Below, in pieces: positions 58,801 to 61,800 of a DNA stretch of 64,000 bases. Location of the stretch: the NCBI RefSeq assembly GCF_003019035.1, contig NZ_CP027447.1; one strand, written 5' to 3'. Within the stretch, counting starts at the first letter, position 1; each line of letters opens with the position of its first letter. The position numbers were made by a program. Source of the DNA: Escherichia coli. Lineage in GTDB: Bacteria > Pseudomonadota > Gammaproteobacteria > Enterobacterales > Enterobacteriaceae.

Positions 58801-61800
58801 CAGGGGCGGTATCAGAATTGTGATGTTTGGTATTGTGCGCCATCGGTTTTCTCTGCTGGCGCAGCAGGTGCCAGTTGTTCAAGCTGGCGTGCGGCAATAT
58901 TGTCTCTGATTTCTGTTGTCGTCAACAGGCAACGTGCTATCATCAAATGGTGTTCTATCCTACTCCGTGAGGTTTACCATGCGTACAACCCAACAATTCA
59001 GCATTACATTAACTAACGAAATGGCTGACATGGTGCGCGCCCGTGTGGCTTCCGGTGCCTATGCTTCAGAAAGCGAGGTCATTCGTGAAGGGCTTCGCGC
59101 ACTGAATGAGCGCGATAAAGCAATCGAAGCGTGGTTAACGCATTCAGCCGCCCCCTCTCTTGATTCTATCCGCGAAAACCCAAACAACGGACGCTCCATT
59201 TCACAGGTTCGCGCCGCGATTCGATCCGGGAAGTAATCTGCATGACATATGAAGTCATCATTACTCCTGAGGCCGAACAACAAATAATCAACCTGCACAG
59301 GTATATAACGGAGAAAGCAGGGAACGTCATTGCTGACAATTATGCCAATGCGCTTCTTGATTATCTTGATGGGTTTTCTACATTCCCGCATCGGGGCAAT
59401 AAACGCGATGATATTCGCCAGGGGATGCGGGTAACTCATTTCCGCCACAGAACGATTATTGCTTTTGCCGTTGATAGCAGAAAAGTCTTTATTGTCGGTA
59501 TCTATCATGGTGGGCAAAGTTATGAAACCGATTTCTTATAAACTTTTACCCACATCATTCCGGTGTTAGAATAAACCGTCCGCCCCCTCTCTTACTGGCG
59601 GATTCGTAGGCTATATAAATCAAAGATCCCGGCTCATGTTTGTGTCGGGATCTTTTTTCGGCGATTTATCCCCAGCGGCAAATCGAATACACCACCAGCG
59701 CCACCGCCATCGCAATTCTTACCGTGGTGAATGCTTCAGGCCAGGTCATCGCAAAACATCCTCCGCGCTTATCAGTTCGTTCCGCTTCAGGTAGTCCATC
59801 GCCTTCTCCGGTAATTTGCAGTCCGGCTTAGCTTTTTCCAGTTGGCTGGCCAGTCGTTTAACCCACATTGTTAATTCGCCAACCTGATTACTGGATGCTA
59901 GTGGATTGTCGGCTTTACCCAGAATGACAGCACAGCAGGCCTCTTTGAGTACCCAATCAACAGCATCTTTCCATGCTCCTGTTTCGACTGGTGGATTCTC
60001 ACGCTTTACCTGTTCATAAAAGCGCACGGCTTTAACCAGTCCTTCTGATGTCACAGGGACTGGCGGGGTAGTGAATAAGACCTGAATCTCATAGCCCGGC
60101 CTGTCGTTGCACCCCTCTTTTGTCGGTACATATTTCCAGTCACCAACCCACATCTTCTCCTGAAAGTCCGTAACGCCTTTTTTCACGTAGCGATATCGCC
60201 ATGCAACTGGTTTTGCCTGCCCTGCCGTTTCATGCCCTTCCTGATAATTAATCTCGCTCATTCATCGCCCCACTCATCACAATATGCTTCGACCGGTGTT
60301 TTTCCTGCTTCATAATCATCACGCCATGCATCGGCATCAGCAGCACTTCCACCACGTAACTCTGCATAGTCCATTAACAGTTCATGCCATTCTTTAAAAC
60401 TGACGTTGTATTTAGTTGAACCAAAATCAGCCATTTTGTTCTTCCTCTTCGTCTTTTATTTCGTGATATGAGTAATTGCAGTAGTTAAAGAAAATTTCTT
60501 TTGCTTCGTCATGAATTTCATCAGGTGTTGCGTCATCGTCCACTTCGAATACATCCTCAAAATCTCCACCAGCTATTCCAGTTTCAATAATTACTTTGAA
60601 CTTTCGCATTTCACTACTGCCCTTTCGGGTGGCCTCCTGCTGTTCTGAGGGTGCAGAAATCCCTCCGGTAAAGGATTAAGTTTTTAACCGTGCTAAATTT
60701 AATTATTCAGTTCTGGATTTTGTCACCCTGCGTATCCGCGCTTTCGCGTTACGCTCAATCTGAATTAACTTTTCTATATTTTTCCGTCTTTCCTGTTCCT
60801 CCTGGCGCAATAGCCTTACATCATCTGCCAGTCTGGTTTCTCTTTTCGCCACAGAGAGCATCCAGTCAAACGGCTCCACAACTGCACAGCAGATTTTACA
60901 GCGGACCTGACGCTCTTTTTCGTCAACCCGGACAGAAGCGTGATGACAATATGTTCTTTCCGATGGCTCATAAAGAAAATTAACCTGATTACGCGGGTCA
61001 TCCTCTTTTTCCGGAAATAAAACAATATTACTTAACTCATCTTCTGGTTTTATTTCCACGTCACTCTCCTTTGATGCGAATGCCAGCGGCGCGTGGCACA
61101 TTAGCTTCCACGATGCGCACAGTTGGTTTGTACATCTCAATCGCTGCCAGCCAGTCAGCTCCTGTCATGCGCTTTTCTGCATCGCCATTAGTCCACTGAA
61201 CCGGTACACCAATAGCCTTCATCGCAATTTCTATTTCCCCGGCAATGGCGCTTTTTCCGCAACCAGTAAAACCAGATACAACGACAAGAACTTCGCCCTT
61301 GGCCGGTTTTAGTTCCCGCGCTTCCAGCTCTTTAACGCGCTCCTCTAGTTCGTAGACTCTGCATTGTTCTTTATCATCAATCAGATATAACCCAAGACAT
61401 TCGCTTTCTACCCAGACACCGAAATCATGATCGTAACGCTCACATGAAAACTCACCGTCGCTGTCCTTTGTTGGGATGGTGTAGCTATCTAATGGGCCAC
61501 CATACGTCGGCACATTTCCCAATGTCGGATGCTCAATCCACATGAAAAATGCACGTCCGGTTATTGGGCAAATATCTGGTCGCCATTGGTTACTCACTGG
61601 TTGCCTCCTGGAAAATAACTGCATGCCCCAGCTTCTCCGCCAGTGCCAGTTCCGCCTTAGCGCCTGCTGACCGCTGCCAGCCTTTCAGCATGTAAATCGC
61701 ATCCACACAACGAATCATTGCCATGCAAATATCCATGTAGTGTGGCTGTGTCAGCCCGTCCGGAAGTACTGCCGGGTTTAAGACTGTATGCCCTTCCCGT

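Follow-up and report, generated by a model that had tools for sequence, protein, structure and literature searches.

The question raised by this locus is whether two small genes that run against all of their neighbours in a Shiga toxin (Stx) prophage form a functional toxin-antitoxin (TA) pair and, if so, of what class and with what role. The locus lies in a stretch of 64,000 nucleotides of the Escherichia coli contig NZ_CP027447.1 (assembly GCF_003019035.1), called the window below. An earlier sequence-only reading had proposed a ParDE pair on the plus strand, with an 85-aa antitoxin of the ribbon-helix-helix (RHH) type and a 99-aa toxin of the ParE/RelE fold, 5 bp apart, in the early region of a prophage and opposite in orientation to the flanking phage genes. 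Our analysis indicates that the pair is very probably a true ParD-ParE operon of type II, located on a self-contained accessory cassette (a "moron") in the nin-like region of a Stx1-converting lambdoid prophage. The identification of the genes was already known, being carried by RefSeq and the PHROGs. PGAP names the exact proteins, across hundreds of genomes, as ParD family antitoxin and RelE/ParE family toxin, and as a gene call nothing is added here. What is added is refinement and context: the assignment of the toxin to the ParE type, the polymorphism of the slot that holds the cassette, and a link to the orphan ParD of other Stx phages.

In the open reading frame (ORF) listing and the raw sequence, parD occupies 58979-59236 (plus strand, 85 aa; ATG at 58979, stop ending at 59236) and parE 59242-59541 (plus strand, 99 aa; ATG at 59242, stop ending at 59541). 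The co-oriented genes are separated by 5 nt (59237-59241), as had been read, and are probably translationally coupled. A Shine-Dalgarno sequence, GAGG, precedes parD at 58969-58972, and the parD start at 58979 is backed by the N-terminus MRTTQQFSITL, which is kept in all relatives. All neighbouring phage genes are on the minus strand, so that the opposed orientation of parDE also holds, and the early region can now be specified as delayed-early and nin-like, lying between the replication genes and Q.

Profile searches, which the sequence-only reading had put forward as a check, confirmed both proteins above the Pfam curated cut-offs. ParD matches PF03693 (ParD_antitoxin) with 32.1 bits (cut-off 21) and NCBIfam TIGR02606 with 53.8 bits (cut-off 46.2), and falls in PHROG 6494, annotated as antitoxin (E 1.7e-56). 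Its matches in the PDB are the ParD proteins of 3kxe, 7ycv, 7b22, 6x0a and 8c24. Residues 6-51 align with the RHH domains of 3kxe, 7ycv, 7b22 and 8c24, and weakly also with those of NikR, in agreement with the RHH antitoxin first proposed. The protein is predicted to consist of an N-terminal DNA-binding half (approximately residues 1-50) and a C-terminal toxin-binding half. The RHH strand is absent from the monomeric AlphaFold model, which is to be expected of a fold that needs a dimer. ParE matches PF05016 (ParE_toxin) with 40.4 bits (cut-off 23) along the full profile (positions 1-89 of 89), and belongs to PHROG 5232, annotated as toxin (E 2.4e-43).

Since PF05016 includes gyrase poisons of the ParE kind as well as ribonucleases of the RelE kind, the two classes were tested against each other, the assignment resting on global sequence and fold ranking. 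The toxin family profile (A1, 17 sequences) found solely ParE toxins in the PDB at E<=10, namely 6x0a, 5ceg, 7ycs and 8c24. The AlphaFold2 model of the toxin (predicted local distance difference test, pLDDT, 83.3) shows the order beta-alpha-alpha-beta-beta-beta. Its Foldseek ranks 1-22 are all ParE-type, with template modelling (TM) scores of 0.72-0.81, and comprise ParEs of Mesorhizobium, Pseudomonas, Mycobacterium, Vibrio and Caulobacter, ParE2 of E. coli O157, PrpT and PfiT, whereas YoeB, HigB, YafQ and RelE start at rank 23 (TM 0.43-0.63). RelE and RelB of K-12 have no detectable similarity to the pair, and hhalign against RelE gave a probability of 0.1%. By these comparisons of sequence and predicted structure the toxin is ParE-type within the RelE/ParE superfamily, which sharpens the original fold call. 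If it were instead a RelE-like ribosome-dependent mRNA interferase and not a gyrase poison, the Pfam family and the RefSeq name would look the same, as neither discriminates, and RelE-type folds are indeed present lower down the list of structural matches. Given the exclusively ParE-type profile matches, the fold ranking, the hhalign result and a partner antitoxin of the ParD RHH type, we regard that reading as highly improbable.

All nine divergent relatives that were examined have, directly upstream of parE, a gene of 85-95 aa that opens with the conserved ParD N-terminus (alignment A3), and for seven of the nine a ParD_antitoxin match is on record. In the window, parE likewise lies directly downstream of a ParD-type antitoxin gene in one operon with a single promoter and terminator. 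A pair from an IncP plasmid co-varies with parDE (ParD 56%, ParE 46% identical). Binding of ParD to ParE is weakly supported by an AlphaFold model of a fused ParD-linker-ParE chain, built on a shallow alignment of 11 rows, in which ParD residues 51-80 reach a pLDDT of 93-95 and the conserved ParE loop 51-60 rises from 62 in the toxin alone to about 93. The word-indexed homology search returned 34 close relatives only, and it took an exhaustive HMMER search to reveal the wider family of 2422 clusters at 50% identity. Of 5426 complete E. coli genomes, 327 have the full pair, in every case on the chromosome, and another 37 have parD without parE.

The module is well formed and apparently functional. 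Both genes are under purifying selection: the ratio of nonsynonymous to synonymous substitution rates (dN/dS) is 0.05-0.2 for parD and for the pair as a whole, and 0.08-0.19 for parE, over dS up to 0.69. Twenty-three ParE residues are invariant among relatives down to 49% identity. Of 80 related viral loci, 74 passed an automated check for the expected length of the two ORFs, and inspection found parE frameshifted in one only. Among the remaining exceptions, three are variants with a C-terminal extension, one is truncated by the end of its contig and one diverges too far for the nucleotide probe. The frameshifted parE (locus L089, 4978-5276) stands beside an intact parD, which is consistent with the toxin having been lost first. 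This locus, and the crippled look of the window prophage, whose terminase gene terL is split by a 15-kb insertion so that its cargo might be decaying, are what speaks for an inactive relic that has lost toxin activity and is kept by hitch-hiking with the prophage. With such constraint on parE, a single frameshift in 80 loci and conserved regulatory elements (see below), we consider a relic extremely improbable.

Several observations weigh against a genuine ParDE operon. No NCBIfam model matches the toxin, and the left half of the candidate operator described below is degenerate. The model of the complex is a fused single chain made with the 11-row alignment mentioned above. Because the toxin is only 13-25% identical to any ParE that has been solved or studied, DNA gyrase is its presumed target by family analogy. 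PrpT and PfiT, both ParE-fold toxins, are known mainly for other effects on their own mobile elements. Literature searches found no paper on this pair or naming its two WP accessions, and a ParD-ParE operon would be without experimental precedent in this subfamily.

Upstream of parD, a promoter scan predicted a plus-strand promoter at 58916-58943, composed of a weak -35 (TTGTCG, 58916-58921), a 16-nt spacer and an extended -10 (TGcTATCAT, 58935-58943). The core TGCTAT of the latter is kept in the relatives from E. coli, Erwinia, Yersinia and Enterobacter (alignment A2). Between the -10 and the Shine-Dalgarno sequence lies a candidate ParD operator, AATGGTGTTcTATCCTACT (58946-58964), which is a degenerate copy of the family-wide palindrome AGTAGGATTnAATCCTACT. 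Its right half-site, ATCCTACT (58957-58964), is invariant in the clade of the window (alignment A2). The AGTAGGATTnAATCCTACT motif occurs 25-45 nt upstream of parD in all seven distant relatives; in six of them the palindrome is full or nearly so, and in the seventh (L010) roughly three-quarters of it is present. As the right half is invariant and the DNA-contacting N-terminus of ParD is nearly invariant over the relatives, including these distant carriers of the motif (alignment A3), we infer that a AGTAGGATTnAATCCTACT-type site is the ParD operator, at which ParD would bind and repress its own operon. Another palindrome, CTGTTG-tcgt-CAACAG (58913-58928), was also considered as the main operator and was downgraded in favour of AGTAGGATTnAATCCTACT, its left arm not being conserved in Erwinia, Yersinia and Enterobacter and its block being absent from the distant relatives. 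It contains the clade-invariant TCGTCAA (58919-58925), present in six of six relatives of the enterobacterial prophage clade versus none of the seven distant ones, which may serve as an operator specific to the clade or form the -35 element of a promoter on the minus strand.

The operon is followed by a predicted intrinsic terminator on the plus strand (59622-59658), with the stem AAAGAUCCCGGC / GUCGGGAUCUUU and a U-run. The RNA fold of 59542-59670 has -38.8 kcal/mol (z = -3.5), and none of 200 shuffles was as stable. A pattern scanner reported no terminator at 59622-59658, which we attribute to the 14-nt loop, beyond the 3-8-nt limit of the scanner. Rfam gave no match in 58000-61000, terminator included. 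The possibility of a small RNA that lies between a promoter-like site (59545-59572) and the terminator was set aside, there being no Rfam match and no conservation of the tail outside the E. coli lineage; this segment is read as 3' untranslated region plus terminator.

A mobile cassette at 58896-59877 includes the promoter, the two genes and the terminator, and also takes in the 3' end of the neighbour gene that converges on it. The same interval is found in phage ArgO145 (4248-5229), 95.3% identical by blastn and 99.8% in the two genes, where it is located in the int-proximal arm, at a different genome position and again opposed to its neighbours. This comparison indicates that the cassette moves between positions in phage genomes. 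Its left junction is sharp: in two independent comparisons, with the hokD-type prophages L011 and L099 that lack parDE, homology ends at 58893, and in two others homology to the cassette begins at 58896. The slot thus bounded contains parDE in the window (58894-60618), hokD alone in L011 (2201-3123), rem-hokD-relE-relB in the Qin prophage of K-12 (L012, 4668-5940), and two small genes with hokD and a beta-family/sce7726 pair in L099 (12521-16394). Such alternative cargo in one sharply bounded site suggests a moron hot spot beside the Q-stx control region. Among 80 viral loci, 76 have the cassette directly against the DUF968 flank, with right flanks that vary. More remote relatives are sited in a tail cluster of a Yersinia myovirus, in the lysis region of an Erwinia lambdoid phage and in an integrase/insertion sequence island of Enterobacter. 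In the Yersinia mollaretii locus (L004, 3738-5848) the relative of the pair lies between the tail tube and tape-measure genes of the myovirus cluster, in a small TA cluster that also holds a 63-aa ParD-like fragment and a toxin gene of the YafO family.

The cassette also accounts for an antitoxin without a toxin. In about 45 Stx phage records its homology runs over 58896-59255 and is broken 14 nt into parE, after which an unrelated lipoprotein-like ORF and then a HigA-like gene follow. In the Stx2a phage LC727840 (L003) the orphan ParD (3001-3258) is 86% identical to ParD of the window and the HigA-like antitoxin is encoded at 3674-3979; the two occur without toxin genes in LC727840, VT2phi_272, PA2, PA8 and phi349. 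Residues 1-47 of the orphan are identical to the window protein, with no nonsynonymous versus eight synonymous changes, and all 12 substitutions are in residues 48-85, the toxin-binding half (dN/dS 0.28). On this comparison the orphan ParD of Stx2a phages derives from the present cassette through loss of parE. Orphan parD and higA genes in Stx phages have been reported as being of unclear relevance (PMC12502783), and the cassette supplies the ancestral partner toxin for this ParD.

The way in which the pair would act is modelled on the established ParDE systems of RK2, Caulobacter, Vibrio, Mycobacterium and Pseudomonas. ParD dimers would bind the operator and repress the operon, and the C-terminal half of ParD would wrap around ParE and neutralise it. 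Cellular proteases would degrade ParD faster than ParE, so that on a stop of synthesis free ParE would poison DNA gyrase, which would break DNA, induce the SOS response and filamentation, and arrest growth or kill the cell. Such a stop might follow from loss of the prophage segment, from an infecting phage that shuts off host transcription, or from antisense collision with early phage transcription on induction. As a ParE-type toxin, the protein is probably a gyrase poison and SOS inducer by analogy with its family, and this would matter here, prophage induction and Shiga toxin output being SOS-driven.

Prophage stabilisation and phage defence, the roles named in the sequence-only reading, may both apply as generic possibilities, and sequence decides neither. 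Selfish maintenance of the cassette and the surrounding prophage segment seems the likeliest role, at slightly less than an even chance, and beside maintenance and phage exclusion the remaining share goes to the absence of any host-level role. The pair might instead serve defence or competition, as an abortive-infection or inter-prophage exclusion module, a reading that we hold as a tentative second possibility; its mechanism, to which we give the same tentative weight, would be that an invader shuts down host transcription, the labile ParD is lost and ParE halts the cell before the phage cycle ends. The slot carries other TA or defence-like cargo in related prophages (hokD, relBE-hokD, the beta-family/sce7726 pair), the toxin-binding half of the orphan ParD is still constrained, as expected of a counter-measure, and TA systems are treated as frequent phage-defence elements (PMC12548467). 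On the other hand, PADLOC-DB 2.0 gave no defence family at E<=0.1 for either protein, a result that leaves a defence role possible; our literature searches gave no verified case of phage defence by ParDE, no classic antitoxin has been verified as an anti-TA factor (PMC12502783), and the orphan could equally be a leftover transcriptional regulator. A more extended version is rather unlikely in our view. It would make parDE one allele of a TA-swapping hot spot upstream of DUF968-RusA-Q-stx in Stx and Qin-type prophages, the source of the orphan ParD, and a weapon of addiction or exclusion between co-resident and incoming prophages, against which the orphan is the counter-measure. If true, this would be the first time that a classic type II antitoxin serves as an anti-TA factor.

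A purely regulatory role was weighed as well. The promoter scan also found an outward promoter-like site on the minus strand (58896-58925; TTGACG, 18-nt spacer, AATATT at 58901-58896) that faces the 90-aa gene, DUF968, RusA and Q, then stx, and whose -10 ends exactly at the cassette boundary, 58896. Both hexamers lie within blocks conserved in the prophage clade, AATAT(A/T) and TCGTCAA, which hold their spacing in five of six clade members. ParD, with or without ParE, might accordingly control a promoter that drives these genes. Against this, the match to consensus is only 9/12, the A/T block could instead act as an UP-like element for the parD promoter, and the gene upstream of the Yersinia relative is co-oriented, which would leave an outward promoter with nothing to drive. 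We therefore consider it very unlikely that this control is what the pair is for. As an addition to the rather unlikely hot-spot reading given above, an outward promoter and the antisense orientation to early phage transcription might couple ParD and ParE levels to Q and to Shiga toxin expression on induction.

Among characterised systems, the closest in sequence and structure are ParD3-ParE3 of Mesorhizobium opportunistum (5CEG, chimera 6X0A) and ParD1-ParE1 of Caulobacter crescentus (3KXE), which likewise have an RHH ParD followed by a ParE-fold toxin. The best match is the structure 6x0a, with E 3.8e-06 against the profile of the family and first place in Foldseek (TM 0.77-0.83), and Caulobacter ParD1 is the best match of the antitoxin. 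These pairs differ in being only 20-25% identical, in being chromosomal in alphaproteobacteria and not phage-borne, and in having operators unrelated to AGTAGGATTnAATCCTACT, as far as compared here. The prototype is parDE of RK2/RP4, whose ParE poisons gyrase and whose ParD represses its own operon and is subject to degradation by proteases. It is plasmid-borne and was beyond the reach of the single-sequence search made here. It shares with the window pair the order of the operon, the RHH antitoxin and a presumed addiction by differential stability (PMC6614396; PMC6191456).

PaaR2-PaaA2-ParE2 of the cryptic prophage CP-933P of E. coli O157:H7 (5CW7/5CZF) is another ParE-fold toxin system on a lambdoid prophage of Shiga-toxigenic E. 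coli. The structural match to ParE2 has TM 0.75-0.81, and the toxins are 17-18% identical. In the work of Hallez this system reportedly has three components, with a small antitoxin that lacks a DNA-binding domain and a separate regulator. The window pair, in contrast, has two components and an RHH antitoxin, and no third complete gene was found in the cassette (58896-59877). For PaaR2-PaaA2-ParE2 a role in prophage stabilisation has been proposed (Hallez et al. 2010, as cited in PMC12548467). ParE-type toxins are also found on prophages as ParE_SO/CopA_SO (CP4So, Shewanella oneidensis) and PfiT/PfiA (Pf4, Pseudomonas aeruginosa; 9W3A), both with demonstrated effects on prophage maintenance or production (PMC12548467; PMC7264888). 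PfiT came second in the fold search with 17% identity to the window toxin. Both systems have other antitoxin families and hosts, and the window pair is known from sequence alone.

True homologues of both partners are found on conjugative plasmids, the classic setting for addiction. The pair of the IncP plasmid p334D3 (WP_001260984.1 / WP_000119407.1) and related plasmid pairs share the gene order of the window pair and carry the family palindrome upstream, but their operator is a full palindrome and the TCGTCAA block is lacking. No experimental study of these p334D3-type pairs was found in the literature. The relBE-hokD genes of Qin in E. coli K-12 are not homologous in sequence and occupy the same slot, alongside the 90-aa gene and ydfU, the gene for DUF968, and upstream of the gene that encodes the antiterminator; they are co-oriented with the phage genes, whereas parDE is opposed to them. 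RelE acts as an mRNA interferase, HokD is a membrane toxin of type I, and the enrichment of Hok in prophages is already known.

The host element of the cassette is a Stx1-converting lambdoid prophage with the arrangement P ... parDE - DUF968 - RusA - Q - stxAB. In full, the minus-strand order is a DnaT-domain replication protein, P (62311-62976), small genes, the position of parDE, the 90-aa gene that adjoins the cassette (58571-58843), DUF968 (57520-58569), RusA (57136-57507), Q (56775-57146), stxA (54075-55031; RIP domain, E 3.9e-37), stxB (53796-54065; SLT_beta, E 6.3e-47) and lysis genes; a further minus-strand phage gene lies at 59746-60261. The stx region (53796-55031) is 97.8% identical to the Stx1d prophage of strain JNEC-KY180, and the window prophage is about 98% identical to a Stx1d prophage over 51105-58893 and 60619-64000. 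The best megablast match to the cassette region is NZ_AP045177.1, with 100% identity over 58200-60500. Transfer of annotation from this record was rejected, the prophage being collinear only over 57180-61087, and the window was for this reason annotated directly. The Mu-like insertion, frameshifted integrase, second RelBE and enterotoxin-A-family gene of NZ_AP045177.1 are not features of the window. In that strain (L098; NZ_AP045177.1 2016191-2062889, outside the window), where the identical cassette is on another prophage, the Mu-like transposable prophage splits the S49 head-protease gene of the lambdoid prophage, of which the integrase is frameshifted.

The Stx1 prophage of the window is itself interrupted by an integrative element of about 15 kb (33578-48644), which splits the gene for the terminase large subunit into an N-terminal part (48479-49672) and a C-terminal part (32834-33559). 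The element encodes its own TerL (34087-35748), a portal protein (37109-38413), an S78 prohead protease (38325-39101), a capsid protein (38935-40080) and a P4-type integrase (47250-48509), as well as a ProQ/FinO protein, an AAA_25 replication protein and a Bro-N protein, a gene content that we take to resemble that of a capsid-forming satellite of the phage-inducible chromosomal island (PICI) type. It is flanked by the imperfect 14-bp repeats TTCGTGAGAATATT and TTCGTGAAAAAATT.

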